Shown here piece after piece: positions 2,465-54,930 of a stretch of DNA of 64,000 nucleotides (positions are counted from its first letter, which is position 1; the number at the start of each line of letters is the position of its first letter). Below the pieces are notes generated by a model, which worked only from the letters and a program-made list of their open reading frames with translations, was not told the DNA's origin and did not search any database. Source of the DNA: Macrostomum lignano (taxonomy: Eukaryota); the NCBI GenBank assembly GCA_002269645.1, contig NIVC01003924.1, positions 5,407 through 69,406 on the forward strand, read 5' to 3'. Both the position numbers and the translations under genes were made by a program.

Positions 2465-2951
2465 CTGGACGTTTTTCGTTGGAGGGTAGACGTAAGTAAC
2501 ACAAGTAATACTCATACGAGTAAGCAGTGAAACTGCTATAAACTTCAGTAAACTGGGACAGAGAACTCGAGAATCAATCAAAAACCAAATATAAACTGCA
2601 AGCAGAGCGGCTTCAGCCGTAAACACGTCTGAATCTCGGACCACAACGAGCCACCATCTCACGCTTTGATTCCATGCGCAGGCGCATTAATTCGGGGCTT
2701 GTGCACGATTGACCTTAATTGACCTAGGGGAGCTGTCGTGCGATTCACATCCAATAGGTCAATAGGGCCAACCAACCACCAAGGCACAGAGAGGGTACAT
2801 GTCTGTCAATTAGAAAGTCAGGGTCTCCATTCACCCTGTGTGAGCGTGTGTATGAGTGCGTGCCTGCGTACAGTATTGGCGCGCTTGTATGTTCTATCTT
2901 ACTTTACTTTAAATCAAGGCATCAAATAGAAGCACCGCCAGTCTCGCTTAC

Positions 2952-3936: not shown

Positions 3937-5887
3937 CTGCAATGGTGGCGGGGGATTGGAGTGATTTAAGTTGGCAAAAATCCACAAATGGTAACAAAAC
4001 TGGATCATATTGATGATGGATGTGCCTTTAAGATTGAATACGATCAGTAAAAAATCGCATTTAACTGCATAGCACAGCTCGAATTGATTACATTTAGTGA
4101 TTAAAAGATTTATAGCTGAACATCGTTACTCATTTATCGAATTCTTTCCACTGGCTAGTTGAGCTCTGTGACCAAACTGATCAGAAATTGTCCAGTCTTG
4201 TCGAATTCCCTCGGGAGAACTGGGAAGAATGCACGATTTGTGGCTATCATGCGACTGGGACGCTACTCTGGAGAGACACGGATACTGCATCTCGACGATG
4301 CGTCACGCAGACTGTCGCGCTCTCATTTGCATTCAGGATGCTGCCGTCCGTCTGTCTGTTCTATCGAGTTTGTTAGCACTCGACACCTCCCAGCGGAGGG
4401 TCGGCTCTCAAAAAAGCAGCCTCCGTTTTATTTACTACTACACGAGCCGTACTGGGGCTTCGCGCGCGACTCGCTAGCCAGCTGGCCCCATGTGGCGATT
4501 ACGCAACGACCCGGCTCTCATGAGCGGAGTCGCCTCACATACGCTGCAACAGGCATTTCTCACTTCATTTTTTATTTCGTCTATTCCTTTCCCTACGCTT
4601 GCCCCCGCGCCTCCCTGTCTCACTGCGTTTCAAATTGTCTTCCTCCATATGAGGAGTCGATTTGATTTGCGCCCAGTCCCAGTCTTGCACGCACGCCAAG
4701 AGCTGGAATTCCGGGACCGCATCGGCCGGGAGTGAATCCGTACTCGGGCCGGCCAAGCCAAGCCGGGGGGAATTAAAATACACAAAAAATCTGCATGCCG
4801 GTCGCGATGAAGCTGTCTCTGAAGAGAAAAAATAAAATTTCAACGGCTTCTACACCGAGGGGCGGAGAATTTAGCGGTCTTAATTATCTTCTCCGCACCC
4901 TGGCCACGGTCTCGGTTGCGCCTCCCAGGGGACCGCGGGGTAGCTGGCGTGCGCTGGCGAGGTGGCTGGCGAATGCAAAAAGACGGGACAAATTTGGGAA
5001 GTCTTCCCCCGCCTCATCCCCCTTTCCAGTCTCAATGGGGACCCGGGCTGTATCGGAGAGAGTCTAGACCCTGGTGAGCAGCCCCAAGAAGGCTGTGAGA
5101 GGTGGCAGATCAAATCCCCAATCAGACTCCATTTCCTCTGAACTCTGACGAGTGTGTGGGGGGATATATGGCCAGAGTCATTTTCTCTCCATCATTTAGG
5201 CCTCAGGCAACTCTCAGGCAAATTAACAAACGTGATTAAACTTCCCAACCGGGAGCCGAAACCGAATGCCGAGGAGCTGGAGGGTCAGACTGGGCTTGCT
5301 ATCAACAGATCCCTGAGCTGCACTGCCCTCATTTCCTCTTTGCTAGTTTGGGATCGCAAATTACCTCTGCTGGAGGGTGGGGAGAGACAGGTAGGTATCG
5401 TCTTTCCGTGACACTTCCTTAAATTGGATCTCCAGTTTGTCCGGCCCTCCAAATCTGTTGCGCAATAACTGTGTCAACAGGTTTTACAGTAAGCTGTCGA
5501 CGGGCGTTCAATGACTGGCAGTCCAAATTATCTTTTTCCCCTGGGTTTTTGCCCGTGACTCTTATAAAATCAAGTCAATATGTAAAGGTGGGCGGGAGGT
5601 GCAATATTGGCCTCCAGATTGGGAGCAACTGAGCAAATGAAGTCAGGTAGACTAGACGTAGGGGCTGACAGACAGTCAATATCCCAGTACTGCAGTGGCA
5701 GCTCTGCCCCAACCTTTAACAGTAACTCCGCATTTTCCAATATTCAAGCATAATGCCCCCGGCTAGACTGCCACTTGTTTGACACTTTCTCGCACGCCAG
5801 TATACGGTACCATCTGTTTTTTAGTTTGCAACTTGCATTTTCGTGAGCCAACCTTGCACTTTTTAATCCAAGTAGATTTTGGGTTTT

Positions 5888-10800: not shown

Positions 10801-10945
10801 GTAAATAAAACTGAAGAAACATTCAAATGAAAATGACCGGAAGTTTCAACCAGTTGTCAAAACCAGCCGTCTTATCTGCTGTGCGACCCAAAAAATGATG
10901 AAGGAGCAAAATGTTTCTCCAGAAGTTTTAGCACCTCTGACTCAC

Positions 10946-11812
10946 CTTTGCAATCACGTAACCTTTGGCCTTGTCCTCGGACACTCGAACCGACGTGCGT
11001 TTAGACTCGAACTCCGGACTATTGTCGTTGACATCCTTGATGACCACGCGGACGGTGATGCGGCCCTTCCGACCGTGTCCGTCCTGGGCCACGAGGTCGA
11101 ACTGGTAGCTCTGCTGCCTCTCAGCGTCCAGGCCCTTCTTCATCAGCAGGTAGGGGTTGCCGTACTCGTCCACATTCAACTCGAAGGTCTCCAAGGTCTC
11201 CGGGCTGGCGCTGGCCGGGTCGATAGTGTACGTCACCCGGCTGAGTTCCGGCGAGAAGTCGTCGTCCTTGGCGATCGGCAGGTCGACCCGCGGGTTCGGA
11301 CAGGCGACCCCCGGCACCAGGCAGACGGACTCGTCCCGCTGGATCTCTTCGTAGGTTGACTGAAACCTCGGCGCGTGGTCGTTGATGTCGCGCACGATCA
11401 AGGTGAACCTGCCGCGCGCCAACCGCCGGCCCTGCAGCTGCGGCTGCGTCGGCGGTGGCAGCTCGCGGACCACCACAGAGAAGGCGTGCCGGCCGCCATG
11501 CGGGCACTTCGCAGTGGACCGGCAGATCGTCTCCAGATCGATGGACGCCTTCAAGCGAATTTCGCCCGAGGACGAGTCGACGCTCACGTAAGCGTCGTGC
11601 ATCTCGAGGGCGTAGGACAGCGGGCCGGCGGAGGTCAGGTGCCGGGACAGGTTGCCAAGGGCAGCGACATTGCCCAGCGCCTGCGGCTGACTTTCCTCTG
11701 ATATTTCGATCGCCTTCTCGAAGGTATACAGAGCGGCCACGCCGGAATGCGATGCGACGGTCGTCAAGGCGACCGCGAAGGTCAGAAGCTCGCGCCAGCT
11801 GCTTAGAGGCAT
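10946..11812 (-). CDS. Protocadherin, first coding exon (signal peptide, EC1, EC2, start of EC3)
   Basis: ORF has a hydrophobic signal peptide and cadherin motifs (IDLE, DINDHAPRF, AKDDD, LDAE, AQDGH, DVNDNSPEF). It ends AAG|GTGAG at 10946/10945. A splice acceptor TTTTTGCAG lies just upstream of the ATG (11823), implying an upstream UTR exon or trans-splicing. Confidence 0.93.

Positions 11813-14808: not shown

Positions 14809-14853
<45 letters not shown>
14809..14853 (+). repeat. (CTAA)n microsatellite, left flank of the Maverick
   Basis: About 11 tetranucleotide units. Confidence 0.95.
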
Positions 14854-14854
<1 letters not shown>

Positions 14855-14957
14855 GTAGTATACGTTTTTTTGACACAAAGCCGATTTCCTTATGGCGAAA
14901 TACATAGTAAGTACAGGCCCAAAAAAATGGCAGAGTCCGAAATTTCATGTGCACGCA
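14854..14957 (+). repeat. Left terminal inverted repeat of the Maverick
   Basis: 14854-14937 is the exact reverse complement of 29499-29582. The match extends imperfectly to about 104 bp. Confidence 0.97.
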
Positions 14958-15412
14958 GTCTGAAATTCCATGTGCACGCAGTCTGAAATTCCAAGTGCAC
15001 GCTAAATATCTTTTACGCAACGTGATTATTCAGACGAATTGCATATCCACCTGTCCAAAATACAAGTAACCGATTCTAGCAATGGTGACACAAACACACT
15101 TCAAAGGATTCCATTCAAGACAAATTTACTCCAAAGCTATTCACACATTTCAAGTGTTTTTGAAATATTGAAAACTTGTGAATATTATCACCCTTTTGAA
15201 GAAAGATAGTAAATGATCTATTCTTGAGTGCCTATAGAATTTTTGCACCAACTTGAGCAGATGGTTTACAGATACTATGTCAACAACTGCGTCAACATGC
15301 TTCTTCTTTATACTATATATATATACGAACACACTGACACAGAAAATATTAAATAACTTAAACCAAGTTTACATTATACTACTTGTTCAACTATACTTAC
15401 ATCTTAAGTGAA

Positions 15413-16274
15413 ATGAAGCGATCACGTCAGCAGGAATTGGCCGAGCGCTATGTTAAACAAGGTAAGATAATCACCTACTCTAGTTCAGTTTTCTTTTTTA
15501 GATTGACTGTTCGCTATAGTTTAGTTTCTAGATTGATTGTTAGTTCGGTTTCTGTTTAGACCGATCCTCTGTTTGTTCAGTCTCTAGATTGATTTTCTGC
15601 TAGTTCGGTTTCTGTTTAGACTAATACTCTGCTAGTTCAGAATTTCTAGATTGATTGTCTGCTAGTTCGGTTTCTGTTTAGACTGATTCTCTGCTAGTTC
15701 AGTTTCTATATACATTGTATACATGCACCTATACCAAATTTCCCTCATCTTATCCATTATTATAGCATTCAAGAATGGTTTCTTCACGCGGCCACCTCCA
15801 GATCAGTGCAAACGCATTTGCCACGACACCACCACATCCAATTCTGCTGCAAGAGCATCATATTCTACATCTCTCGCCAGAGTAACCTCGATTCATGTCG
15901 AGAGACAGACAACTGAGCTAGATCGCATTTACACAAGAACTGATGTTATTCAGTCAATTAGGCAGCAATCGAACCCACGACCAACTGACCAACTGCAGTA
16001 TGCACCACCACCACCATCACCAACCAGCTACAATGACCCAACAAAGCAAACTTGCAGTAAGCCTACAAGTACCAAACCAACGACAGCAACTGAAACACCA
16101 TCATCATCAATTGCTATTTCTACCCAAGTTCAACCGCTGCTAAACTCGCCAATTATTGTACAGAAGGACATCAAGTCTGTAAAAGTCTCTCAAATGAGCA
16201 CAGGCTTCTACCAAGTAGAATTACCAAAGACCTGTAATACAACTCAAGTATTTGAATATTGGGACCTATCTTAA
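15413..16274 (+). CDS. Maverick accessory gene 1, spliced (15413-15461 + 15766-16274), about 185 aa, unknown function, Thr/Ser/Pro-rich centre
   Basis: ATG exon MKRSRQQELAERYVKQ ends G|GTAAGA. The acceptor ...CCATTATTATAG|CA restores the frame of the 15723-16274 ORF (G+CA=Ala). Confidence 0.6.
15481..15710 (+). repeat. Degenerate ~30-bp tandem repeat inside the intron of accessory gene 1
   Basis: Alternating TAGTTCGGTTTCTGTTTAGA.. and TAGTTCAG..TCTAGATTGATT.. units. Confidence 0.75.
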
Positions 16275-16524
16275 AAAGACATTTTTTCTAACTCTTCATA
16301 AAATTTTGCCAGCAATGTGTCCAAGTAATTGCTCTTTTAGTATATATCAAACAAGTCTGTAATCAATAATATAATCTCTATAAATTCATTATTCTAAAAA
16401 ATTCTTTCAATTTTATTCGCCATTTATTGAAATTATTTAATTCAATATAAAGTCAATATCTTGTACAGTCATCATTAAACAAAAATTATTAATCCATGCA
16501 AATAATTTTTTTTTCATACGTTTC

Positions 16525-17215
16525 TTTAGCCATGGTCTGGCTTTTGCCTCAACAGTATGATTTAGCTGTGGTCCAGCTTTTGCCTCAACAGTATGATTTA
16601 GCTGTGGTCCAGCTTTTGCCTCAACAGTTTTTAGCCGTGGTCCGGCTTTTTTGCCTCAGCAGTATGATTTAGCTGTGGTCTAGCTTAAAACTGCATCAAC
16701 AGTGATTTAGCTATAGTCCAGGCTTAACTACCTCAACGATGATTTAGCTATAGTCAAGGCTTAACTGTCTCAACAGTAATTTTAGCTGTTGTCCAGACTT
16801 AACTGCCTCAACAGTGATTTTAGCTGTGGTCCAGGCAACTGTCTCAACAGGGATTTAGCTGTAGTCCGATTAGCTTAACTGTCCAGTTATTTAGCTGTGA
16901 GCCAAGCAGCAGCACCCGTCTCAACAGTGAGAATTAGCTATGGTCAGCTTTACCTCAACTGTGATTTGGCTGCTGTGGTCTAGCATAACTGACTCAACAG
17001 TAATTTTAGCTGTAGTCGTCCAGCTTAACCACCCGTCCAGTTTTATAACCATGGTCCAGCTTAACCACCGTCTCAACGTACAGCGATTTAGTCGTGGTCC
17101 AGCTTAACCGTCTCAACGTACAGTGATTTAGCCATGGGTCTAGTAGCAATTAACCGTATCAATAGTGATTTAGCCGTGGTCCAGCTTAACTGTCTCAACA
17201 CAGTAATTTAGCTTA
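16525..17215 (+). repeat. Internal array of about 18 degenerate ~36-bp palindrome-containing repeats
   Basis: Consensus TTTAGCTGTGGTCCAGCTTAACTGTCTCAACAGTGA. Indels between units rule out a continuous reading frame. Confidence 0.85.
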
Positions 17216-17750
17216 GTCCAAACAGCATTTGTGTGTCAACTGCACTGACTGCATGCGGTTATAGCAGCGGCAGTCATTATAGTCCCAACAAGCTGCGCGT
17301 CGCAGCATGATAGTGTAACTCTATATAGCTTCTGCTCAATATAGGACTGCAAAAGCTGAGTTACAACTATACCTTTTTCTGTTTGAAAAGTAACACTCTA
17401 TATATAGGTTACTCAAGCAATCTCTTGTCACCGTGCGAGCTAAAAAATTCCAACATGCAAGCAAAACTTTCAATAAATTAATTTCATAGCACCGCGTGCA
17501 GCTTATTTTTACTCTAAAATCCAAGATTGCTAATTTTTCAAGTCGCAAAATATTTTAATTACATTCTACTTGAGAACAAAACCAATCTAATGAAGCAGCA
17601 ACCAGCAGTCTTCTTATTAAACGCTTGCCATCGTGTTACTCTTGCAAATTTATAACTAGTGTGCCTAAGATTCATTAATTTTATTGTATAAAATATCAAC
17701 CTACATTTGCGTAAAATTAGACCTAATCATGCAACCCACCCTAGAAACTT

Positions 17751-19122
17751 ATGCCACCTTTGGCACGCAACAATGTCTTAATCAGCACGCAACAATTAAA
17801 TTTGTTTACTAGTTCACAAACAGCATGCAAAGCTTGCTATAAATACAAGACCCGAAATGGTCAATTTTTCATGAGCTCAATCATTACAGCAAAAGAAATA
17901 CTATATTCAATTGCTTGTAAGACATGGCAGCTTGCATCAAGACGGAGTCAATTGTACGCTCCGACTCGAGTCCGATTTTTTACGTTGGAGAGCAGTCTAC
18001 AACCACGACTGGTTCGTCCTGCCAGTTTCGATCTATTGCGTGGAAACCATCAATCGAGTGTACAAAATGGTACCCAATTATATTGCAAACCAAGGCTCCA
18101 ATGGAGCTTTTTCGTGGAATCGCAGAAAGGCCAGAGCTCGATCATCCGTCTTGCAGACACGACTCTCGCGACGCAGTAAGTGTCCAATTTCATCCAGACA
18201 GCTGCGATAAGGAACTCTTCCACTCTCTCCGGTGAGCACCATATTAAATTTATACAATTAATTTTAGGAAACTATATTCATAATTTATATAATGTTTTGC
18301 AGTCAAGTCGAAAAAGGTCTATCGGTCAAGTTGAACGAGATTCAAGATGCTCGACCCTTGGCACGACTAACAAAACCAGCTCATCAGCATGCTAACGACG
18401 TCCTCGAGTTTGTGCCTCAACAATGGCTGGCTATAAAGCCTGCTTACCCTTGTGCCACAATCAGGATCAGCAACGATCATCCACACGGGAAGGAGGTGTC
18501 CATTTCCGATTTCAAAGGTGTCAGCGGTACCTACCAAATGACAGTGCAAGCAACGAGCTTGTATTGTCCAAAAGGCTGCCTCGTCTGGCGCATTACATTC
18601 GCTGTGCGCTCTCTGACACTCATAGAATCTTCCGACAACATGTTGCAGCGCCTCGACATGTTCAAGGGAGTGCTTGCACACCTACCCGCGACCAAGTCAG
18701 CAATTAGAAGCAGGAGTCCGTCCCCAACATCTACCTGTGAGCAAGAAGAAGCAAATGAACAAAGCCTGCAGAATTCAAGCCAGGTGACACCTGCCAAGTC
18801 ACCTGCAAAGCGTCGGTCTACCACCACCGTATCGAAGAAGTCGACTACATCGAATGCAGCGCCAGCCTCTATTGAACCGCCGCCTAAAAAGCAAGTTCGA
18901 AAACGCAGCGGTGCAAAACAGCAAAACAATTCTGCCGAAGCTGGTGCAGATGGCACAGACTGGGTGGAGGCTCCACCAGCAAAGATCTTGGTGAGTACAC
19001 CTGCCTCTGGAACCAGGGTAGCGTCCAAGGAGACAGCATTTTTAAAGCGTGCTGCTGCGGACGCTACTACAGCTAGCGTGTCTTCATCGGACGACTCGTA
19101 CAGCAGCTCTGATGATGAGTAA
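17751..19122 (+). CDS. Maverick accessory gene 2, spliced (17751-18175 + 18303-19122), 414 aa; putative tandem OB-fold ssDNA-binding protein with NLS and acidic tail
   Basis: A perfect donor CA|GTAAGT and the acceptor TGTTTTGCAG|T join the two ORFs in frame (CAT). Shows internal repeat-like segments, PPPKKQVRKR and a terminal SSSDDSYSSSDDE. The function is inferred. Confidence 0.6.
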
Positions 19123-19332
19123 CAAAATTTTTGACTAATTTTATCCAAGTTTTAACTAACTTATTCCACTATATTTATCAAATTTTTGGCTAGGGAAATA
19201 TTATTTTTTAGGGAAAAGCTCAAAACATTTTTTGCTACTCCTTGTACGCTAACCAGGTTTTGTAATTTAATATTAGAATTTACGATAGTATAGTCATGTT
19301 TAACTTTTCTTATTATTTATTTTCCGTTTTAG

Positions 19333-19890
19333 CGACTTGTCCTATTAATAGTTACTGCGAGTCTGAAGCTGCACCCGTTTGAAAAATTTGATTTAAAGCA
19401 GACCAAACAGAAGCTACAGACCAGAAACCGGTTTTGCAAACTATTCCTAAGCCGACCAACAATGCTAAAGACAATTTATTCAAATGCTAAAATCCAACTT
19501 TATCCAGCAGGAAAACTAACTATATATGGCTGTAAATCAAATTCTCAGATAGTCTCAGTTTTACGATTTATCAACGACACTATTAATTGTGTAGATTTTG
19601 ATTCAGTAAAAATTCAGAGCAGTACCTATGTCGGCTTTATTGGTCATCTTTGGCCAAAATTCGGTTTCTCTAGTCTAAAAAGATATGCAGGCTACTATTC
19701 GAATTATCTGGTTGGATACGATGCAGAAAATTTCCCACAAGCAGTTTCTGTTAGATCAGCATCAAAACCAAGGCTTTTTTGTAACATATTTTTTTCGAAA
19801 AAGTTTGTTATTATGGGCGTTCAAAACACTCATGAATTGAATAATATTCTTAACCATGTCAAGGATTTTTTAATCTCTGTTAATAACTAA
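19333..19890 (+). CDS. Divergent TATA-binding protein (TBP)-like protein
   Basis: Open frame from the acceptor TTTTAG|CGA (19333) to the stop. KFDLKQT, IQLYPAGKLTIYGCKS, FDSVKIQS and YDAENFP...KPRLFCNIFFSKKFVIMG align by eye with both TBP core repeats (KLDLKTI, ALIFSSGKMVCTGAKS, FLDFKIQN, YEPELFP...KPRIVLLIFVSGKVVLTG). Confidence 0.8.
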   Translation, partial: RLVLLIVTASLKLHPFEKFDLKQTKQKLQTRNRFCKLFLSRPTMLKTIYSNAKIQLYPAGKLTIYGCKSNSQIVSVLRFINDTINCVDFDSVKIQSSTYVGFIGHLWPKFGFSSLKRYAGYYSNYLVGYDAENFPQAVSVRSASKPRLFCNIFFSKKFVIMGVQNTHELNNILNHVKDFLISVNN

Positions 19891-20113
19891 ACTTAACAAG
19901 TAAACAATTGCTGTCAAATCGCAGTTGCGATGCATTCTTTTACAAACATTTTGTCTTTTTTTATTTATTTACCAATTGTTTTCTCTAATAGTAAACGTGT
20001 CAGCTATACCTATAACTAACCAAATCATCATTTTTCTTACAGCCGCAAATGACAAACCGGATCATCTATTAATATTATGCTCGATACGCTCGTTGTCGAG
20101 CTAGGTGCACACA

Positions 20114-20827
20114 ATGCCGCGTGCACAATGCCAAATCTGCAGAAAAAAGTTCAGTAATCAAGCCGAGCTGCATGCTCACTCGCATGGTGCTTGTTTTTCA
20201 CCGCAACGATTACTGACCGGATCGCTGCAAAACCTGATCGAAAACCCACCAGATGGGTGGTCCATCGCTTTGCGCGAGTCAGCTCATCGTGGTCGGGTAA
20301 ATTTTGTCGAATTTACTCCCACTCTTGAACAACAAGGCAACAGCTCTGGCGAGTTACTTCCTGGCGAGTTGATTGCGTCTTTAAGAGAACCAATATTTAA
20401 AATATTGGAAAAAATTGGCTCACCCAGTTTATTAATAAGAGTCTGCTTTCACTTGAAAGTGACACTATTTCGACCGAAAACAGCAGCAGACGACAACGAT
20501 GGCTCGAGCAGCGAAGAGATCATTTCGGTCTATTTTAATACCAACATTGCGACAATATCATTTGATGAGACGATTGCAAACAGTGACATGCTGTTATCTC
20601 CCGAGGCCTACAATGACTGGTTCGCACGCGTTATTAATCAGTTGTTAATAAAAATTGACAATTTTCAATCTCGAGGTAGTAATTGGCAATATAGAGCAAT
20701 CGAGCAGCTAGACTTGATGCTCTGCGTTTATCGCAAAAGCCATGCAAGCACACTGTCAACAAATACGTCCCACGGTGGTGTGGGGGCGGGCGGCGGCAGT
20801 GGTGGTGGTGGCGGCGGTGGTGGTGGT

Positions 20828-20859
<32 letters not shown>

Positions 20860-21190
20860 GCGCGGGGAGTCCGGTCCAGTCCGGTCCGGTCCAGTCCGGT
20901 CCGGTCTGGTTAAGCAGCAATCGTTTAAAGTTCCAGTCTCAATCGGTCGCAAAGCTGGAGCAGTACTGCTTCTAAAGCCGCACAGAGCAGTTTAAAGCAT
21001 CAAGACTATTTAAGAGTCTTACACAAGCGACAACTTGTGTTTTCGCGCATACAGTCCATTCGTTCTCGAAAACAGAAAGTTTTTTTTGATGCAACAAAGA
21101 AAACTTGCACTAAGCTTCTTCGATACGAAGCGATCCTGGACAAGTTCAATTAATTCGCTACCCTTTGGACACTGGCACTTGGCTAATTAA
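20114..21190 (+). pseudogene. Protein-primed DNA polymerase B (pPolB) remnant with internal deletion of the exonuclease/polymerase core
   Basis: The N-part has a C2H2-like finger and the Maverick pPolB N-terminal motif IDNFQSRGSNWQY..I..LDL...Y, then SFKVPVSI.RK..V. From about 20974, in another frame, come pPolB C-terminal motifs LKHQDYLRVL..IQSIRSRKQKVF, a 1-nt shift in a T8 run, and MQQRKLALSFFDTKR...INSLPFGHW*. Confidence 0.82.
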
Positions 21191-21482
21191 TTAACAATAT
21201 GCTCTGATCTCTTTTGTTGTACAAAGTAATAGCATGCTATAGAAGACTGTAACCCATCATTAATTTTTTCATTGATCATTATTTACAATAAATAAATGAT
21301 ACCGGCATTCGTTTAAATTATAATTTTAGCACTTTTTTGTGTTTAATTATTTGAAAAAGTATATTTTTTATAGTTAGATTCTCAAGACTAAGCTTGTGTT
21401 TGTAGTAGACGTAAATGTAGTGCTATCGTTCATGTTTCAAGAAAAAAAACTTTTTTTTAAACTTTCAGCTACAAGAATCGAC

Positions 21483-21965
21483 ATGAATCCCGAGCAGCAG
21501 CAGCAACAACAACTAACTGATCGTAAGCTTTTAGTTGAACGTCTATACGATTCGGCAACGATTCCGACCCGAAAAACTGTCGGGTCGATCGGGTATGATC
21601 TTTGCGCTGGCGTCGATGGTACCATTCCGGCCTACGAGTCCCGGAGTGTGCGAACCGGACTCAAAATTCGCTTACCGCCTGGTACCTATGGCAGGATAGC
21701 GGGACGTTCCAGCATGGCTCTGCACAGCTTATTTGTTGGCGGTGGCGTAATCGACCCCGACTATACTGGTGAAATCTGTATAGTCTTGTTTAATTACAGT
21801 CCGGAAGACTTTGAGTACTATGCCGGGCTCAGTATTGCACAACTGGTTCTGGAGCAGGCCGTGCTTGCTTCAGTCTATGTGACTGAAGCAGACAATTCGA
21901 TTCGGATGATTGAGCCGCCGACCAAGCGGCGCGGCTTTGGCGGCTTTGGCAGCACTGGCCAATAA
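21483..21965 (+). CDS. dut: dUTPase
   Basis: All five motifs are present: GYDL, GRSS, GVIDPDYTGEI, IAQLV and RRGFGGFGSTG. Confidence 0.96.
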   Translation: MNPEQQQQQQLTDRKLLVERLYDSATIPTRKTVGSIGYDLCAGVDGTIPAYESRSVRTGLKIRLPPGTYGRIAGRSSMALHSLFVGGGVIDPDYTGEICIVLFNYSPEDFEYYAGLSIAQLVLEQAVLASVYVTEADNSIRMIEPPTKRRGFGGFGSTGQ

Positions 21966-22056
21966 GTATAATAATAATAATAAACTGATTTTTTTCTTTG
22001 GTGATTGGTGCACTATGCGAGAGCTTTGTAAATACTATAAGCAATTTTAAAAATTT

Positions 22057-22500
22057 ATGCCTAAAATATATGTTGTAAAAATGTCTCCAGCGAAAGATCG
22101 AGGTTTTAAAAAGAAAAAGAAGAGCATTCGTAAAAAGAAGAAATCTATTAGAAAGATTAATAAAAAGCAACAAGGTTATGGTGTCGTAAATTGGTTAATT
22201 AATCATTTACCATTTGAAGCACATTTACCCGGCGGATATCAGTTTTGTGGTCCAGGTACGCAACTGCAAGCTAGGCTAGCAAAAGGACAACGAGGAATTA
22301 ATCGGCTTGACAATTTGTGCATGCTTCACGACGTGGCCTATGATAAAAATTCTGACGTGCAAGAGAGGTTAAAAGCTGATAAGCTATTAGAATCTGGTGC
22401 ACGAGAGATTGCCCACGATCCGTCTACTGGTTGGAAAGAAAAACTAGCTGCGAAGTTGGTTACCAAGGTTATGCAAGTTAAGCAACGCTTTGGTGCTTGA
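22057..22500 (+). CDS. Parvovirus-type phospholipase A2 virion protein (PLA2X) with basic N-terminus; probable start 22081
   Basis: Ca-binding loop YQFCGPG and catalytic N.LD..C..HD..Y are present. This protein is typical of adintoviruses/Mavericks. Confidence 0.9.
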   Translation: MPKIYVVKMSPAKDRGFKKKKKSIRKKKKSIRKINKKQQGYGVVNWLINHLPFEAHLPGGYQFCGPGTQLQARLAKGQRGINRLDNLCMLHDVAYDKNSDVQERLKADKLLESGAREIAHDPSTGWKEKLAAKLVTKVMQVKQRFGA

Positions 22501-22502
22501 AA

Positions 22503-23192
22503 ATGCAGCAGCCATACAATATGCAACTAGCTCACGATTCTACATTTATTATTGCTGGACCTTCAAACTCGGGTAAAACTGAATGGACGTTGCGTTTGTT
22601 GACTGAACGAAAAGAATTATTTGATAAAAAACCGTGCCGTCTTGTTTGGTGCCATGGATCAAGTTTGAAACCAGACGATCAACAACGAATTAGAACATGC
22701 TGGCAAAAAAGCGGTCTTGACCCTATTGTTTTTGTACCCGAATTCACACCACAGATGATTAATCGTTTTTTACCACACGATTTGGTTGTTGTTGACGACT
22801 TGCAAAGCGAGATTGCTAAGTTGCCAGAATTTACTAGTATGTTTACAAAGCATGCGCATCATATCCCTTTGACTTGTCTGTACCTTTGTCAAGGTCTTTT
22901 TAACAAGTCTGATCCAGAAGCACGCATGCGAAGTTTATCAGCTAGTTATATTTGTCTAACTCGTAGTGTGCGCGATCGAACCACAGTTGAACATCTCGGT
23001 CGACAAATGTATCCGCGTAATAGTAGGTTTCTAGTGAATGTGTATGAAGACGCAACAAATAACAAACCTTTTTCATATTTATTCATTGACCTGCGGCAAG
23101 TGACACCAGATTTTTTACGATTGAGAACAGGAATATTTTCTGGTGATGAACAAGTTGTCTATACTCGTGAATGTGATGCAAAGTTTGTGTAA
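22503..23192 (+). CDS. FtsK-HerA/A32-like DNA packaging ATPase
   Basis: Walker A GPSNSGKT, Walker B VVVDD, HAHH..T..YLCQ and R..SLSASY. Confidence 0.93.
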   Translation: MQQPYNMQLAHDSTFIIAGPSNSGKTEWTLRLLTERKELFDKKPCRLVWCHGSSLKPDDQQRIRTCWQKSGLDPIVFVPEFTPQMINRFLPHDLVVVDDLQSEIAKLPEFTSMFTKHAHHIPLTCLYLCQGLFNKSDPEARMRSLSASYICLTRSVRDRTTVEHLGRQMYPRNSRFLVNVYEDATNNKPFSYLFIDLRQVTPDFLRLRTGIFSGDEQVVYTRECDAKFV

Positions 23193-23249
23193 TATTATTA
23201 TAAGCAAATTATAAACTGTTGTCAATATTAGTTTGTGTTTTATTTCAAA

Positions 23250-24239
23250 ATGAGTTTTTACGTTTTTTTGCCGTCAAACGATATCAGTTACGAAACCAAC
23301 TCGCCTAATGAATTTCGAGTGCGACTAACTGAACCAATAAATTTATTGAACGGATTCTTCGAGGTTGCACTAGTTGAATTACTGTGCCATGGAGCAATTA
23401 CGACGCCAAATGCTCATCGTGAGCGTCGATTTGAAGTTCCATATTTTGCGGACATTGACTCAATAATACGATTAAAGAAAAACTATTGGGGTCGTGTTTG
23501 GGCAGAGGCAGACTTGGATGCTTACGTTTCCTGGCAACCGTCTGGTACAGATGAAAAATTTGCCTGGCTTTTACGAAATTCAGGCGAAAAAACTATTGGA
23601 TTAGAACTACCAGTTACATTTATGGACGCTTTCAAATTTGACTCTTGGAAGAAACTTTCTGGACTTGTCTCGGAAAAATTATCAAAACCTGCCGCTGGTA
23701 GTGTACAACCACCGGATGGTTCATACTTGGATTTGATAAAAAGTCTCGACAATACTCTAGCGCTAGTACCTGAGAACTATTATGTTTTTTATTGTGTTCT
23801 ATCGCCTGGTGAAGCTATACGACTTGTTTCGCATGGAGACTATCTTCGAAAAACGGAAGGAGAAGTGTACATCAAAGTACACCAATATTGGTTGAGAAAT
23901 CGTGTTTGGCGCATTAACAAAACCTACTTGGATGCTGTGCTACCTTCTCCGATGCCTAGTAAAACGGTTTACATGTACTGTTACACAGATATAATCGAGT
24001 ATCAAGCAGTGGGAAGTACATCAGTACCGTTGCTTCGAGTTGTGGAACTCCAACAAAAGAAAAACGGAGAACTTATACGCGATAGCAGTGCATTGCAAAC
24101 ACCCTACTACTTGAAAACAAATCGACAACAAATTCACGAGATTTCGATTCGACTATCGGACCAGCGCGGAAAACCGTTTAATTTTGATCCGGGAGCACAC
24201 GTTGTTGTCGTACTGCATTTTAAACATAGGTCGGACTAA
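23250..24239 (+). CDS. Minor capsid protein (penton, single jelly roll)
   Basis: The Maverick-typical N-terminus FYVFLPSN...F.V.L...I.L.G.FEVALVE and C-terminus MYCYTDIIE...VG....PLLRVV...PYY....I..ISIRL.DQ.G are both present. Confidence 0.85.
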   Translation: MSFYVFLPSNDISYETNSPNEFRVRLTEPINLLNGFFEVALVELLCHGAITTPNAHRERRFEVPYFADIDSIIRLKKNYWGRVWAEADLDAYVSWQPSGTDEKFAWLLRNSGEKTIGLELPVTFMDAFKFDSWKKLSGLVSEKLSKPAAGSVQPPDGSYLDLIKSLDNTLALVPENYYVFYCVLSPGEAIRLVSHGDYLRKTEGEVYIKVHQYWLRNRVWRINKTYLDAVLPSPMPSKTVYMYCYTDIIEYQAVGSTSVPLLRVVELQQKKNGELIRDSSALQTPYYLKTNRQQIHEISIRLSDQRGKPFNFDPGAHVVVVLHFKHRSD

Positions 24240-24295
24240 TTTATAAGCAAAGATTAATTGTGTAATAGAAAATTTTGTGAATTTGTTTTGTAAGA

Positions 24296-24724
24296 ATGAG
24301 CGAACTAACAGAAAAAGGAAAACAAAATGCTCGCTCATTGTGTCAGTGTGCTTTTTTACTACAAATTGTTTATCGGCTAAAGCATCCAAAGCAGAGAAAA
24401 AGTTTTTTACAAACACTTTCAGAGTCGGAGATACGATGTCTAGTAGACTTTCTGTTTAATATTATTAGTGGACGTATTAAAATTAGTAACTGTAACAAAA
24501 GACGACTTGAGAAGCATCGCAGATATATACGCCAGCTTTTGGAACAGAAGACTCCAATTACTGCAAAAAGGAAAATACTTGTCCAACACGGAGGATTTTT
24601 ACCTTTTTTGGCTCCAATTATTGCCGCTCTACCTGCTATAAGCACTGCGCTTGGGATAACGTCTGGAGTAGTTGGTACCGCCGCGGGAGCAGCGAATTTA
24701 ATACGATCAATTCAACGAAAGTAG
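24296..24724 (+). CDS. Conserved Maverick small virion protein with QHGG|FLP site and hydrophobic C-terminal helix
   Basis: The pattern L...K.RK.LL......I.CL....NI..G.I.I....K.RL.K....IR.L......KRK.L.Q.GGFLP recurs in Polintons. A protein VI-like role is an inference. Confidence 0.7.
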   Translation: MSELTEKGKQNARSLCQCAFLLQIVYRLKHPKQRKSFLQTLSESEIRCLVDFLFNIISGRIKISNCNKRRLEKHRRYIRQLLEQKTPITAKRKILVQHGGFLPFLAPIIAALPAISTALGITSGVVGTAAGAANLIRSIQRK

Positions 24725-24734
24725 TAGGAATATA

Positions 24735-25424
24735 ATGCGAACTAACGAGAGTAGTAGTTTTCAACGAATGTATCTAGTACCTGAATCTGTGTATCAATCT
24801 GCATGTCAAGGTGCAGAGCAAGGATCGTCACCAACTGCTGAGACACCTCGAAAAACTGAAGTTTTAGACGCACCGCAAGATGCTCTGGCAAAAAATATGG
24901 TGGAAATGAGAGACCAAATGGATAACTTGGACAAGGAAATGGAAAAGGAGCCAAATTACACAGCTCAATTGAAACGAAGCAGATTGGAAGACAAACTTTT
25001 AAAATTGCGCAAAGTCTATCGCACTGGAGACGAGGACAATCTGTCACTTGTTCGCAAAGGGACTACTGTAAGAAGTTCATATGCCAGCGAATCAAGGGAA
25101 ATTCCTAAAGTTTTTTTACCACGTTTCGAAGCTCTCGCTCAAAACCTATTTTCGGACATGGACAAGAATGCAGAACCAATGCTGGCTAATTTGACTGATG
25201 CCGAGATACAAGATCTCATGGAATATGTTGTTCGAGACAGACCGCTTAAGCGACACGAGACTCAACCGCCTAGTGGACTAAAAACATTTTTAGACTTTCT
25301 TCGAAAACGTGGAATCGCAGCAAACCAAATCGGGCGTCATGTACGAAACGAGCTAATGTCTGCTCCAAAAACTGTTGCAAAGGAGGATCTTAGTCTGTTT
25401 GAAAATTATCAAACACTGAATTAA
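24735..25424 (+). CDS. Maverick hypothetical helical/coiled-coil protein
   Basis: 229-aa intact ORF with an RMYLVP N-terminal motif, in its usual position upstream of the integrase. Confidence 0.7.
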   Translation: MRTNESSSFQRMYLVPESVYQSACQGAEQGSSPTAETPRKTEVLDAPQDALAKNMVEMRDQMDNLDKEMEKEPNYTAQLKRSRLEDKLLKLRKVYRTGDEDNLSLVRKGTTVRSSYASESREIPKVFLPRFEALAQNLFSDMDKNAEPMLANLTDAEIQDLMEYVVRDRPLKRHETQPPSGLKTFLDFLRKRGIAANQIGRHVRNELMSAPKTVAKEDLSLFENYQTLN

Positions 25425-25536
25425 GTTGTTTTAAAATTACAGATTACGTTTTAACAAAATTGATTCGAGCACTATAAGCTTTTTAAAAAGGTTAATTTTT
25501 TGTTTATGAAAAATATATAGTTTAATAAGACAAACC

Positions 25537-25725
25537 ATGTCATCTATCTTCCAAAAACTTTTGATTCGTCTCTGTGAGTTTTTTTGCATAAAATCTGAAT
25601 GTGTGCCGTTTCTGGGAAAGGAGCACAACGAGGATACTGACGGAGATTCGATCGAGGCTTCGTTCTTTTGTTGCAACTGTCAAACGACTAGCATCAATCT
25701 AACTGATGATGAAGCGAGTGCGTAA
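25537..25725 (+). CDS. Small Cys-rich/acidic ORF (62 aa) overlapping the integrase start
   Basis: Its ATG is 64 bp after a TATAAGC motif. There is no homology evidence. Confidence 0.35.
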   Translation: MSSIFQKLLIRLCEFFCIKSECVPFLGKEHNEDTDGDSIEASFFCCNCQTTSINLTDDEASA

Positions 25726-26866
25726 GGAAATTGAAGAATTTTTGACGGATGCTTTTTTTAACTTGAACAGGCCTACTTCATTTAGTGGTAACAAGACTAT
25801 ACTTGTTCGTGAAGTACGTAAAAAGTTTCCACAGATTACGAACAAAGTTGCAAAGCGCGAAGTTGATAATTGGGTGCGATCAACAAATGAGCATCATTTA
25901 TTTCGAAAAACACGACGAAACTTTCCAACTCCAAAAATTAGTGTGCCACCAGTTGCAAAGTTTCAGTTTCAAATCGATTTGGCAGATTTACCTCAATACA
26001 AGACGGAAAATCGAGGTTATCGTTACATACTTGTTCTTATCGACTGTTTTACTAGAGTTGTACGACTAAGACCATTGCGTACAAAGAAGCCTTCAGAAGT
26101 TAGTCAAGTATTACTAGAGATTTTTCGAAGTGGTTTTAAGCCTGTTTATTTACAAGGTGATGCTGGTATGGAGTTTCTCGGAAGAGCTACACGTCAAATG
26201 CTGAAACAGGAAGGAGTTCGATTTTTTGTTAGCCAAAGCAATTACAAGGCAAGCATGGCTGAACGATTTATCCGCTCGTTAAAGGAACGTCTATTACGAT
26301 ACTTTCGAGCAAAAAATTTACCTCGATGGTTTGACATTTTACCGCAATTGGAAGATAATTTCAACTCTAGTCCTCATCGATCCTTGAGTGGAGAAACACC
26401 AAAACGGGTAGAGACAGACCCGCATTTACAAGGAATTTTGTGGGACAAAATGTTTGCGAAGTCGTACACTAAAAAGAATGAGAATAAATTTAAAGTTGGT
26501 GATTGGGTTAGAATTACACGACGTCGAGGAACATTTGAAAAAGGATACACTACGACTTGGAGTAATTCAAAATATCGCATTCATCGTGTACACTTGACAG
26601 ACCCGCCAATGTACGAATTAGTGGACCCTGAAGATGGATTTGAAGTGCTGAAAGGAAGGTTTAACCAAGCGGAACTAATGTTGGTAAACGAGACAGATGA
26701 AACACCTAATGAAATTGAAAAAGTTATTGAAACTGATCGAGCGAAAAATGGAAGTCGTCTGTATCTAGTAAAATGGAAAGGTATGCCAATCTCAAGAAGT
26801 CAGTGGTTAAACGAAAATGATCTTGACGCAAAGACTGCTAAACTATTTTCTAAAGTGTATAAGTAA
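25706..26866 (+). CDS. Retroviral-like (rve) DDE integrase with C-terminal chromodomain
   Basis: Catalytic QIDLAD, LQGDAGMEF and AERFIRSLK are present. The chromodomain reads IEKVI.....NG.RLYLVKWKG.P.S..QW. Confidence 0.96.
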   Translation: MMKRVRKEIEEFLTDAFFNLNRPTSFSGNKTILVREVRKKFPQITNKVAKREVDNWVRSTNEHHLFRKTRRNFPTPKISVPPVAKFQFQIDLADLPQYKTENRGYRYILVLIDCFTRVVRLRPLRTKKPSEVSQVLLEIFRSGFKPVYLQGDAGMEFLGRATRQMLKQEGVRFFVSQSNYKASMAERFIRSLKERLLRYFRAKNLPRWFDILPQLEDNFNSSPHRSLSGETPKRVETDPHLQGILWDKMFAKSYTKKNENKFKVGDWVRITRRRGTFEKGYTTTWSNSKYRIHRVHLTDPPMYELVDPEDGFEVLKGRFNQAELMLVNETDETPNEIEKVIETDRAKNGSRLYLVKWKGMPISRSQWLNENDLDAKTAKLFSKVYK

Positions 26867-26907
26867 CACATGAATTGGGATTGCATGACGAAGAGAAGAC
26901 TGTTGAA

Positions 26908-27366
26908 ATGGATCCTATTTTTGCTTTTTATTCTGGTCCGAATAGATCTGCTGAAGGTGGAGGTGGATATGGCATTCCTGTTTACGAAGGTTACGGTTTT
27001 TTGTCAAATTTGGCGGACAGATTGGTGTATCCTGTACTACGCAACGCAAAGAAAGATTTCTTGGATCGTGGTCTGGAGTATTTGAAAAGTGCGACAGCAA
27101 AAATTGGTATGGGTCGGAAGCGTCACTTGGACACAGAATCGAGCGAAGAGATGTTTAATACAACTGCAGTTTCGAGACCAAAGCGAAGGAAAAGAACCAG
27201 TGGAGTGGCTATAAGCTTAGGAAAGAAGAAACGGCAAAAGAAACGACGAACAAGACAGTGTGGAAAGGGACGCGTGAACAAAAGAAAACGCAAGAAGACC
27301 GGTGGTATAGGAAAACGTCGAACTGCTACTGCAAGCAAGAAACTTTTTAGTCTGTTTGAAAAGTAG
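26908..27366 (+). CDS. Basic core/DNA-condensing protein (adenovirus pVII-like role inferred)
   Basis: MDPI..Y..GGGGYGIPVYEGYGFL N-terminus with GxG sites, and a very Lys/Arg-rich C-terminus. Confidence 0.7.
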   Translation: MDPIFAFYSGPNRSAEGGGGYGIPVYEGYGFLSNLADRLVYPVLRNAKKDFLDRGLEYLKSATAKIGMGRKRHLDTESSEEMFNTTAVSRPKRRKRTSGVAISLGKKKRQKKRRTRQCGKGRVNKRKRKKTGGIGKRRTATASKKLFSLFEK

Positions 27367-27367
27367 C

Positions 27368-28690
27368 ATGAACCATTTGCTTGGACCTGATATTGCTGCT
27401 CTTAAAAGTGAATTGTCGCTATTTGATCAAAGTCCTGTTCAGTTTAGTGTTTTGGATAATCGATATACTAACATTCAACCGCAACATGGTATTACAAAAG
27501 GATCACCTATCGAATTTGAAGTTGTGCCTGCAGGCGATTTGTATTTGGATCTACAAGAAACTGTGCTCACGGTATGCTTCAGCGTTAGTGATAGTGAAGG
27601 TGAACCTATAGATGCAACGAAAAATTTTGTTTGTTTGAATAATTTGGTTATTGGAACATTGTTTGAGGACGTTCAATTTACTATTGGCGATACTGTAGTT
27701 GAAGGTGGTAGTTTTATGTATCCATACAAGGCTATGCTTCTTACATTACTGGAATATGGACATACAGCTCAGAAGGCTGGTTTACTGCCGTGGGGGTTTT
27801 ACAAGGATACAGCTGGTAAAATGAATGCAACAAGTGAAAACGATGGACGAACAAAGAGGCAGGCGCTCATTGCTAACAATAGGCGGTGCACTGTATCGGG
27901 GCCGTTATTCTTGGATTTGTTTCGTCAGCCTCGGTATCTACTATCAAAGACACCACTACGGATCAAGCTCATACCGGCAAAAAGTAAATTTGTCCTGAGC
28001 GGGTCAACATTAGAAGCTGGTGCGGTTTTAAAAGACTATGAGATCAAGTTTTTGCGTGCAGAACTACGATTGCGGTTTGTTCAACCCTCGCCGAGTGTTA
28101 TCAGTGCACATGCTCATGGACTTAAAAGTCACAATGCATTATATCCGCACCGAAGTCTAAGCCTTGGTACGTTTACTATACCCCGAGGATCGTCTAGCCA
28201 TACGCATGAAAATTTGTTTCCTAGTGGGGTACCACGGCTTTTATTGATGGCAATCGTAAGCAACAAGGCATTCAATGGAAGCATGGACACAAATCCGTTC
28301 AACTTTGAGCATGCAAATGTGAGCAGCATTGGTGTGTTTGTGAATGGAGACTCGGTACCATCGCGTCCGCTGCAGACAAACTTTGGAGATGATTGTGTGA
28401 CAGAGTATAATTTTTTGCTACAACAGCTTGGAATCTATCTACAGGGACGAGATATTGGATTTAATATGCTGGATTACGCCAATGGTTACTCAATTTTTGC
28501 ATTCAGTCTTGGAAGTGAACCTGGTGTCGGACGGGGAGTGCAACTGTATAAGGAAGGAAATGTAAAACTAGAGTTACGCTTCAATGCTGCAACTAGTACC
28601 GTGTACAACGTCATATTTGGAGGTATATTTGACAAGCAACTGCAACTGACTGAACTTCGCGACATTGTTCCTGGCACAGTATGGAAGTAA
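27368..28690 (+). CDS. Major capsid protein (double jelly roll)
   Basis: 440 aa with KSELSLF..P.Q.S, PIEF......YLDL..T, YPYKA.L..LL.Y, GPL.LDLF.Q.RYL, N.FNGS...NPFNF and G.SIFAF.L, characteristic of Polinton MCP. Confidence 0.93.
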   Translation: MNHLLGPDIAALKSELSLFDQSPVQFSVLDNRYTNIQPQHGITKGSPIEFEVVPAGDLYLDLQETVLTVCFSVSDSEGEPIDATKNFVCLNNLVIGTLFEDVQFTIGDTVVEGGSFMYPYKAMLLTLLEYGHTAQKAGLLPWGFYKDTAGKMNATSENDGRTKRQALIANNRRCTVSGPLFLDLFRQPRYLLSKTPLRIKLIPAKSKFVLSGSTLEAGAVLKDYEIKFLRAELRLRFVQPSPSVISAHAHGLKSHNALYPHRSLSLGTFTIPRGSSSHTHENLFPSGVPRLLLMAIVSNKAFNGSMDTNPFNFEHANVSSIGVFVNGDSVPSRPLQTNFGDDCVTEYNFLLQQLGIYLQGRDIGFNMLDYANGYSIFAFSLGSEPGVGRGVQLYKEGNVKLELRFNAATSTVYNVIFGGIFDKQLQLTELRDIVPGTVWK

Positions 28691-29244
28691 TTGATTCTAT
28701 CCTAGATCGTGGTGTAACAGATCGCTTCCTTCGCAATGTTGTATCGAAATTGTGCGCACATTTTTTAAATGTTGTATTTCTTGGTGTTTTTCCTCAAAAC
28801 TTTGTTGGTGGACTTAGACGCTTACCTTTAGACGGTAAAGACTATTTTTTTATCGTTAATACTGACGTCTCCAACCTGCCCGGAAAACATTGGGTATGCG
28901 TTTGGGTTTATGGTCATCGAGCAGGTCGCGGTAGCAAACGACTTGGTGAATATTTTGATTCTCTTGGTCTAGTACCATTGCCAAGAATAGCAAAATGGCT
29001 AGGAAAAGAATGTGGAAATTCGAAAAATTGGTGTTATAGTCGCTTTGCTATCCAAGACCCACAGAGTGGAAGTTGTGGATTTTGGGTAATTTTTTATATT
29101 TTTCATAAGTTGACTACCAGAGGAAACCTAGAGTGTTTTATTCGAAGCGTTTTTAAACGGAATATAATTCGCACTGGTTCGTTTCGATACTTGTATGCTA
29201 AATTACGCAATTTTGTTTTACGAGTGCTGCCTCAATATTTGTAA
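28681..29244 (+). CDS. Adenain-like cysteine maturation protease
   Basis: FLGVFP, IVNTD....PGKHW, EYFDS.G and IQ......CG.W give the His/Asp/Gln/Cys catalytic set. Confidence 0.94.
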   Translation: MEVIDSILDRGVTDRFLRNVVSKLCAHFLNVVFLGVFPQNFVGGLRRLPLDGKDYFFIVNTDVSNLPGKHWVCVWVYGHRAGRGSKRLGEYFDSLGLVPLPRIAKWLGKECGNSKNWCYSRFAIQDPQSGSCGFWVIFYIFHKLTTRGNLECFIRSVFKRNIIRTGSFRYLYAKLRNFVLRVLPQYL

Positions 29245-29478
29245 ACTCGCTAATTTGTGCGTCAAATTGTGTTTGTATCTAGTTGAAATATACAATACTG
29301 CTTGAAAAGAAGAATTTAAATGCGTTAAGTTATACGCGAAATAAGCTTTGTGTCAAATTGAATTTTGGTTGGGCTTGTAATTAGCTGCATTCATTGCGGA
29401 TAGAATTTAGGTGGATAGACAGGTGTTTGCGTAAAAGTGATTCAGCTAATTGGTTAATTCATTGCGTAAAAGCTAGTT

Positions 29479-29582
29479 TGCGTGCACGGCAAATTTCAGA
29501 CTCTGCCATTTTTTTGGGCCTGTACTTACTATGTATTTCGCCATAAGGAAATCGGCTTTGTGTCAAAAAAACGTATACTACT
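29479..29582 (-). repeat. Right terminal inverted repeat of the Maverick
   Basis: Reverse complement of the left end, ending ...CGTATACTACT. Confidence 0.97.
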
Positions 29583-29648
<66 letters not shown>

Positions 29649-29653
29649 GACTG

Positions 29654-29748
<95 letters not shown>

Positions 29749-29775
29749 GACTAACTAACTAACTAACTAACTAAA

Positions 29776-29819
<44 letters not shown>

Positions 29820-29863
29820 AAACAAACAAACAAACAAACAAACAAACAAACAAACAAACAAAC

Positions 29864-29948
<85 letters not shown>

Positions 29949-29949
29949 G

Positions 29950-30008
<59 letters not shown>

Positions 30009-30009
30009 G

Positions 30010-30055
<46 letters not shown>

Positions 30056-30127
30056 CAACTAACTAGTTAACTAACTAAGTAACTGACTAACTAACTAACA
30101 AACAAACAAACAAACTAACAAACTAAC

Positions 30128-30212
<85 letters not shown>

Positions 30213-30213
30213 G

Positions 30214-30247
<34 letters not shown>

Positions 30248-30290
30248 CAACTAACTAGTTAACTAACTAAGTAACTAACAAACTAACTCA
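29583..30290 (+). repeat. (CTAA)n microsatellite with (CAAA)n and CTGA variants, right flank of the Maverick
   Basis: About 700 bp, read directly. Confidence 0.97.
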
Positions 30291-54069: not shown

Positions 54070-54263
54070 CTGGAGTGAAATGGTTGTTGGAATGTCGAAT
54101 AGCAGTCAGCAAGCCAAAGGGTAAGAGACTTACTGAATTCCTAAATAGTTGAGATTTTAAACAATTTTTTGCTGACCTGCAGACCCTTTAGCTAAGATCA
54201 CAGTGTGTTGCTACCTGCCCTTCACACCTGTTTTCCAAAGGCGTATACAGTATATGCACTCAC

Positions 54264-54879: not shown

Positions 54880-54930
54880 CTGTGGATTGTGGGTGGGAGA
54901 CTCTCGTGAGCAAAGGTTGCTTTGAAGGGC

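Follow-up and report, generated by a model that had tools for sequence, protein, structure and literature searches.

Mavericks are defined by a polymerase that is thought to copy their own genome, and to our knowledge nobody has shown the mechanism by which they replicate in animals. A locus of Macrostomum lignano raises the question of whether such an element can multiply once that polymerase is gone. We analysed a window of 64,000 nucleotides (assembly GCA_002269645.1, contig NIVC01003924.1, forward strand, positions 5,407 to 69,406; coordinates below count from the window's first letter), in which the original prediction had described a recently inserted Maverick lacking the core of its polymerase, pPolB, and had left two readings, a helper-dependent lineage or a deletion after insertion. 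One precise deletion shared at many independent sites would show that pPolB acts in trans and that Mavericks give rise to defective lineages dependent on a helper; this would supply a mechanism for amplifications of polymerase-defective copies that are so far unexplained. Polymerase-less copies may be undercounted in surveys that ask for matches to both integrase and pPolB (PMC8097293). A junction found at one locus would mark an ordinary broken copy.

Ends and Insertion Site of the Element

Paired terminal inverted repeats (TIRs) delimit a Maverick derivative of 14,729 bp at 14854-29582, flanked by a candidate target site duplication (TSD):

14854..14957, plus strand: left TIR, 104 nt, 96% like the right TIR, starting with (AGT)2
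29479..29582, minus strand: right TIR, inverted-repeat partner of 14854-14957
14848..14853: left TSD copy, 6 bp, within a (CTAA)n microsatellite
29583..29588: right TSD copy, 6 bp, opening a 706-bp (CTAA)n run
14934..15002, plus strand: subterminal 23-bp repeat, three copies, at the left end only
16525..17212: degenerate tandem array with a unit of 36-40 bp

Maverick TIRs end in (AGT)2 or (AG)3, and the element carries (AGT)2, the most frequent end motif (PMC8097293). The two TIRs, previously described as identical, agree over their first 84 nt and differ at TIR positions 85 and 93-95. The mismatch at position 85 (29498 in the window) is common to the left-end contigs of all four sequencing runs described below and is thus a family trait rather than decay, so we dropped TIR mismatches as a clock. 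A 6-bp duplication is present, as predicted, but it was overrated as a perfect TSD: it lies inside (CTAA)n, which occupies both flanks, so that a duplication of 2, 6 or 10 bp would leave the same 2-nt phase shift that is observed. Hence both TIRs and TSD are weaker signs of a recent insertion than had been supposed. A target preference of the element for the (CTAA)n microsatellite is possible.

The microsatellite is short on the left of the element (14809-14853) and 706 bp long on the right (29583-30288). Host genes on the minus strand comprise cadherin-domain exons and a family-3 GPCR (2914-4008, 10928-11812, 54211-56866), and the element may lie inside or next to a cadherin gene. Further downstream, a 1-kb MITE- or foldback-like element (57009-58008) has inverted repeats of 207 nt at 98%.

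Gene Content Outside pPolB

Apart from pPolB, the element carries the following open reading frames (ORFs), all on the plus strand:

15723..16274: accessory ORF, 183 aa, no family; an upstream exon is possible
18292..19122: accessory ORF of 276 aa without a family; a donor-like site lies at 18991
19333..19890: TBP-like frame, open for 185 aa between stops (Pfam PF00352, E 2.2e-07)
21432..21965: dUTPase (PF00692, E 1.5e-29; motifs)
22057..22500: parvovirus-type phospholipase A2-like protein (PF08398, E 3.4e-09; His-Asp motif)
22503..23192: packaging ATPase (Walker A and B motifs; relatives in 30 of 80 loci)
23250..24239: candidate minor capsid protein, 329 aa (relatives in 46 of 80 loci; without a Pfam family)
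24296..24724: adenovirus pX-like core protein (PF05829, E 2.3e-06)
24735..25424: ORF of 229 aa, no name
25706..26866: rve integrase with chromodomain (PF00665, E 4.5e-08; PF00385, E 1e-06; D-D-E motifs kept)
26908..27366: basic ORF of 152 aa, no name
27368..28690: presumed major capsid protein, 440 aa, full length (113 relatives, the best 67% identical over 100%)
28681..29244: adenain-like cysteine protease (His-Asp-Gln-Cys motifs kept; relatives in 63 of 80 loci)

The prediction that the virion and integrase ORFs downstream of pPolB are open holds for all of them, with catalytic motifs kept, and every ORF examined in the element lies on one strand. The rve integrase, packaging ATPase, cysteine protease and major capsid protein, recognised from motifs and relatives, are those of a Maverick/Polinton. 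We take the ORF at 27368-28690 to be the major capsid protein from the annotation of its family, while the 329-aa ORF is probably the minor capsid protein, judging from its size and position. The 80 related loci were obtained by a locus search with a distant capsid protein as query; none contained relatives of the dUTPase or the TBP-like frame. Locus searches gave no match in viral contigs and, with the element's own capsid protein, none in metagenomes, and an exact look-up of eight window proteins found none of them.

Splice-like donors and acceptors occur at 15462, 18991, 19332, 20042 and 21468 (19332 and 21468 picked by eye), in the left accessory region and before the terminal-protein (TP) and dUTPase ORFs. 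Maverick genes are usually described as intronless; some genes of this element may be spliced. A variant of the dUTPase stretch (21528-21955) differs at 60 of 428 letters and makes up about a quarter of depth while sharing the downstream genes, which suggests recombination between families.

What Remains of pPolB

The pPolB gene is reduced to two adjoining parts:

20114..20995, plus strand: truncated pPolB ORF, 293 aa (zinc finger, TP domain, Gly-rich linker, vOTU start, stop)
20775..20910, plus strand: GC-rich (GGY)n and 5-bp repeats that encode the Gly-rich linker
20989..20990, plus strand: deletion junction, at most 1 nt fitting both sides, out of frame
20990..21190, plus strand: pPolB C-terminal remnant, ~66 codons in two frames (tblastn with P0004)

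The N-terminal ORF, 293 aa long rather than the ~294 estimated earlier, comprises a C2H2-like zinc finger (residues 6-24), a TP domain (residues ~49-207) and, at its end, the first ~25 residues of the vOTU domain. A single-sequence AlphaFold model of it (mean pLDDT 56.9, with 94 residues at 70-90) shows a beta-sheet and two long helices over residues 49-207, followed by a disordered tail. Foldseek returned four matches to the model at E ≤ 0.001, including an adintovirus C2H2 protein (8e-07), a MELD-virus PolB (1.9e-04) and a densovirus-labelled polymerase (9.4e-04). In a fold search of 48,161 solved (PDB) chains, Y-family polymerases took ranks 1-7, the best with a middling Z of 6.8 (rmsd 3.6, 115 residues aligned). 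No adenovirus terminal protein was among the 50 matches listed in either fold search, and ESM Atlas yielded no match at ≥ 0.9. The TP (D1) domain has been described as a little-finger/PAD-like alpha/beta fold in which a Ser or Tyr beside Gly or Pro, between helix 2 and strand 4, primes synthesis (PMC11161782); in our model, Ser189, which follows Gly188, sits in the helix 2-strand 4 loop and is the candidate priming residue. Judged by its predicted fold, the 293-aa ORF retains a complete TP domain, and the earlier view that a terminal-protein-like part stays translatable is supported by the fold prediction and the searches.

Sequence searches with the 293-aa protein gave no match among 5071 candidates of similar length and two among 962 longer ones; against 50% representatives there were four matches, one of them spurious (the bacterial repeat protein P0003). 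The M. lignano gene models P0002 and P0004 are among its nearest relatives. P0002 stops early in vOTU and P0004 skips from TP to motif C, so that both are without the core; their core loss may reflect real deletions or gene-model artefacts of splicing or assembly. The linker between TP and vOTU is ~60 residues longer in the window than in three relatives, and its tract is longer still in the gene model P0001.

The remnant behind the junction was recognised with P0004, residues 191-271 of which match it in two frames (tblastn, E 1.5e-13); P0004 in turn matches the C-termini of all four related pPolBs (E 2e-09 to 2e-14). The original prediction had the N-terminal region joined to the last ~70 codons of pPolB, and the ORF does lie directly before a remnant of nearly that length. 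However, an in-frame TP-tail fusion protein is ruled out, as the two frames differ at the join, and the prediction had missed a frameshift at the T-run 21080-21087 that breaks the remnant itself. This is the only frameshift in the 9,750 coding nt examined, and it falls in the 201-nt remnant, a coincidence with a chance of ~1 in 50 by length or ~1 in 6 by long homopolymer runs (an estimate that omits two runs at the doubtful dUTPase start). A frameshift in a useless tail fits, weakly, with selection on the other genes after the deletion.

In agreement with the prediction that no exonuclease or palm motifs lie between the two parts, a profile of four natural pPolBs run on all 1775 six-frame fragments found neither domain anywhere in the window. 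Its matches were the N-terminal ORF (E 0.0012), the remnant (E 0.11) and an unrelated fragment outside the element (E 0.98); together with wide motif patterns, this rules out a polymerase hidden elsewhere in the window. A complete pPolB (TP-vOTU-exonuclease-palm) is thus absent and TP and tail alone remain, which makes the element a derivative of Mavericks and not one of their autonomous members. Measured against all three complete relatives (1154-1265 aa), the missing part amounts to ~916-1023 aa or 2.7-3.1 kb, and adding it back gives an element of 17.5-17.8 kb, close to the forecast of ~3 kb and a typical size once restored.

Among the 80 related loci, a complete pPolB frame was found in three and a partial one in one. 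Pfam, PHROGs and PDB sequence searches gave these polymerases no name; they count as pPolB by their motifs (exonuclease II, A, B and C), matched to the patterns usual for these. The relatives' polymerases lack a PF03175 match, which points to the Beta class of Mavericks, as judged from sequence; Alpha and Beta classes, as well as PLA2 genes, are described in PMC8502044. In one related pPolB (L046:1616-5410) there is an insertion resembling endonuclease VII (PF02945, E 0.0003, a match that falls short of the curated threshold).

One Deletion Removed the Polymerase Core

Of 24 listed sequencing runs, 20 (seven studies) contain at least half of the words sampled from 19900-24200. None of the 24 is listed as an RNA source of this sequence, a result that has no bearing on expression. 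We aligned the contigs of four runs from four studies (X1, X3, X13 and X11) to 17300-29582, a stretch that begins 2.4 kb inside the element's left end; X11, labelled 'RNA?' by guess, serves as DNA-like contig evidence only. A contig of X1 covering 20916-21761 runs across the junction without a gap or a single differing letter, matching 74 letters on one side and 772 on the other. Such a bridging contig appears for one of the four runs among the 32 of 576 pieces listed, and the window itself may derive from X1.

Sister contigs part from the window sequence exactly at 20989 on both sides, which places the junction there and not at 20960-20980 as first located. Loose ends behind 20989 come from X3 and X13 and extend for at least 255 nt; those before it come from X3 (among the 24 of 126 entries listed). 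Read by eye, the sister letters behind the break form ten stop-free codons that include a Cys-Phe pair like the one at the relatives' vOTU catalytic cysteine, which puts the break just before the vOTU active site; those before the break resemble P0004 immediately upstream of its tail. The sister ends show undeleted sequence at the break, not a whole working polymerase. The deletion is therefore real: a single event took vOTU, exonuclease and palm but spared both ends, the TP domain and every other gene.

A second, rearranged derivative is present as a low-depth sister contig (depth 3.5 in X1, 17.8 in X3) that joins the TP region at 20754 to TIR sequence at 29559 on the opposite strand.

Abundance of the Deleted Form

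In X1, the bridging contig has a depth of 14.5, against 20.7 upstream and 21.5 downstream, that is, 67-70% of the family. The window's T-run allele, linked to the junction on the X1 contig, accounts for 82% (X3), 84% (X13) and 94% (X11) of summed depth; these shares rest on the linked marker and not on the junction itself, and that of X11 is inflated by overlapping contigs. With the further proviso that contig depth is not copy number, the data suggest that the deleted form outnumbers its undeleted sisters by roughly 2:1 to 5:1 by depth. The family as a whole reaches depths of ~176 in X3 and ~900 in X13, compared with 11.5-25.6 and 53-146 for variant contigs. Against the low-depth variants (11.5-25.6 in X3, 53-130 in X13) the ratio is 7-17, which exceeds one hexaploid locus if these variants are single chromosomal copies. 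The corresponding figures are lower, 21.5 vs 3-10 (~5-7 times) in X1 and 55 vs 6-25 (~2-9 times) in X11.

Contigs that cross the ends of the aligned stretch number one in X1, six in X3, 23 in X13 and five in X11; one each in X1, X3 and X11 marks the internal left edge of the stretch, and such contigs may come from relatives down to 85% identity. The gene model P0001 is 100% identical to the window over 342 residues and then continues into Gypsy sequence absent from the window, while being silent on whether its locus carries the deletion. At 17831 the window is unlike most contigs in all four runs, and at 21051 it is unlike all X3 and X13 contigs. Among the contigs of the four runs, the junction is never seen in two flanking contexts, and none of the flanks could be tied to it.

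Helper-Dependent Spread and Its Alternatives

We favour the reading that the element is a non-autonomous Maverick derivative amplified with polymerase borrowed from rarer sisters, to which we give a probability of roughly 0.55, since the form seen in the window accounts for the larger part of the contig depth of its family. In helper-dependent linear replicons, the polymerase is supplied by relatives that share the ends. As in a trans-mobilised element, the cis-acting ends are intact here, and undeleted sister contigs are present at the break; the depth shares and the end-crossing contigs hint that the lesion recurs at independent insertion sites. The observed steps are a single deletion, with at most 1 nt of microhomology, that stripped vOTU, exonuclease and palm from pPolB, and the survival of the particle and integration genes and the ends. 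With an undeleted sister active in the same cell, the sister's polymerase would begin synthesis at the TIR ends that both have in common; the shorter genome copied in this way would then integrate by its own or the sister's integrase, and, being ~16% shorter, it could outgrow its helper in the manner of defective genomes. The 293-aa ORF comes near to the fragment that vOTU cleavage would set free and could act as a free priming protein, should such a role be needed. Whether the family has settled into a division of labour, with a majority that keeps capsid, protease, integrase and free TP outnumbering a rare polymerase-supplying lineage by ~5 to 1 in a laboratory animal model, is an attractive but doubtful extension.

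The reading that competes most seriously, though we hold it to be less probable, is that of a dead copy multiplied passively: one deletion after insertion, followed by copying of the locus with its flanks in whole-genome or segmental duplication, or spread of the junction by gene conversion, with no borrowed polymerase. M. lignano is a neopolyploid with three subgenomes in four to six chromosomal copies, in which 85% of the genome is threefold paralogous and the lines have the constitution SSL1L2 or SSL1L1L2L2 (PMC10733133). Its subgenomes differ by 1.4-2.4% SNPs (PMC10733133), within the upper bound of 3.5% set by the 84 identical TIR bases, and the X1 depths of 14.5 vs 3-4.3 fit 4-5 chromosomal copies; in vertebrates, moreover, 96% of Maverick loci are decayed (PMC8097293). 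Yet the family in X3 and X13 stands at 7-17 times many variant contigs, over the six copies of one hexaploid locus, and the T-run allele not found in the window makes up 16-18% (X3, X13 and, by a neighbouring marker, X1), where whole subgenomes would give 1/3 or 1/2. Passive copying also sits poorly with the several contigs that cross the TIR end, with P0001 in another context and with the fact that no other ORF is broken. We thus rank helper-dependent spread above passive multiplication, as the somewhat more likely course.

Two other accounts carry less weight. The TP-only form may have been selected, its free TP priming the element's ends for a borrowed polymerase, like split adenovirus genes, or interfering with complete elements to the benefit of the host. 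The whole TP fold appears to be kept in the model together with the Ser-Gly loop between helix 2 and strand 4, the ORF ends near the proposed natural cleavage region (PMC11161782), split TP genes have more than one origin in polintons (PMC11161782), and P0004 and P0002 are two more Macrostomum gene models without the vOTU-to-palm core or ending early in vOTU. These, however, are automatic models open to splicing or assembly artefacts, a helper's pPolB carries its own TP, an open 0.9-kb frame is expected anyway in a young element, and divergence is too small for a selection test on the ORF; we regard this account as improbable. An assembly artefact, with a full polymerase hidden by collapse at a GC-rich repeat, was what the original prediction named as its refuting condition, and a GC-rich low-complexity tract does lie 80-200 bp upstream of the junction, where reads seem to be cut. 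The junction nevertheless lies clear of that tract and is crossed, without a difference, by a contig that was assembled independently; sister contigs diverge exactly there, and depth shows no rise of the kind that a collapse needs. An artefact is therefore refuted, except in the case that the window derives from X1 and both carry one chimeric library artefact. Of the two readings left by the original prediction, helper dependence is thus favoured, as the more probable one, by the depth shares.

Comparison with Known Systems

Defective-interfering genomes and helper-dependent adenoviral vectors keep their ends in cis, receive the replication enzyme in trans and have a shorter genome, usually with loss of structural genes. 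The M. lignano element, by contrast, keeps all of its structural genes. Non-autonomous Polintons were reportedly noted by Kapitonov and Jurka in 2006, and Tlr1 elements are sometimes regarded as such (PMC5499653). The accessible text of PMC3014272, PMC6431247, PMC11131425, PMC4405056 and bioRxiv 10.1101/2023.08.22.554363 adds no further case. In the open literature we found no Macrostomum Mavericks and no clean deletion that spares TP; subscription papers, Repbase and preprint supplements may hold such cases.

With the Mavericks/Polintons (adintoviruses) of animals (PMC8097293, PMC8502044) the element has in common TIRs with (AGT)2, an apparent 6-bp TSD (here within the microsatellite), rve integrase, ATPase, capsid protein, protease, and PLA2-like and pX-like proteins, and its restored length of 17.5-17.8 kb falls inside the 12.7-24.6 kb of intact vertebrate Mavericks (PMC8097293). 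It is unlike them in having no functional pPolB, ORFs on one strand, and dUTPase and TBP-like genes. In adenovirids and a Stylophora polinton, stand-alone TPs likewise place the TP domain apart from the polymerase domain (PMC11161782), but these systems retain a separate, complete polymerase gene and the element does not. Axolotl, tuatara and pike contain hundreds of polymerase-defective Maverick copies whose amplification is unexplained (PMC8097293); these are old copies with pPolB fragmented by stops and frameshifts, whereas M. lignano has one shared deletion in a near-identical, young family.

A close parallel is Pieris mannii, in which, according to a preprint (bioRxiv 10.1101/2025.02.07.637071), polintons lacking polB have been amplified beside complete relatives, their mobilisation being left open by the authors. 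Like the M. lignano element, they have lost polB and kept their TIRs, show signs of amplification after the loss and have complete close relatives in the same species. In P. mannii the loss goes together with the insertion of a LINE or a Gypsy element, whereas the deletion described here is clean and internal, brings no cargo and spares the TP domain; moreover, the deleted form seems to predominate within its family, unlike the P. mannii case. Thus, an amplified polinton without polB is of a kind already reported in that preprint, and the clean, TP-sparing deletion in M. lignano is a variant of it.
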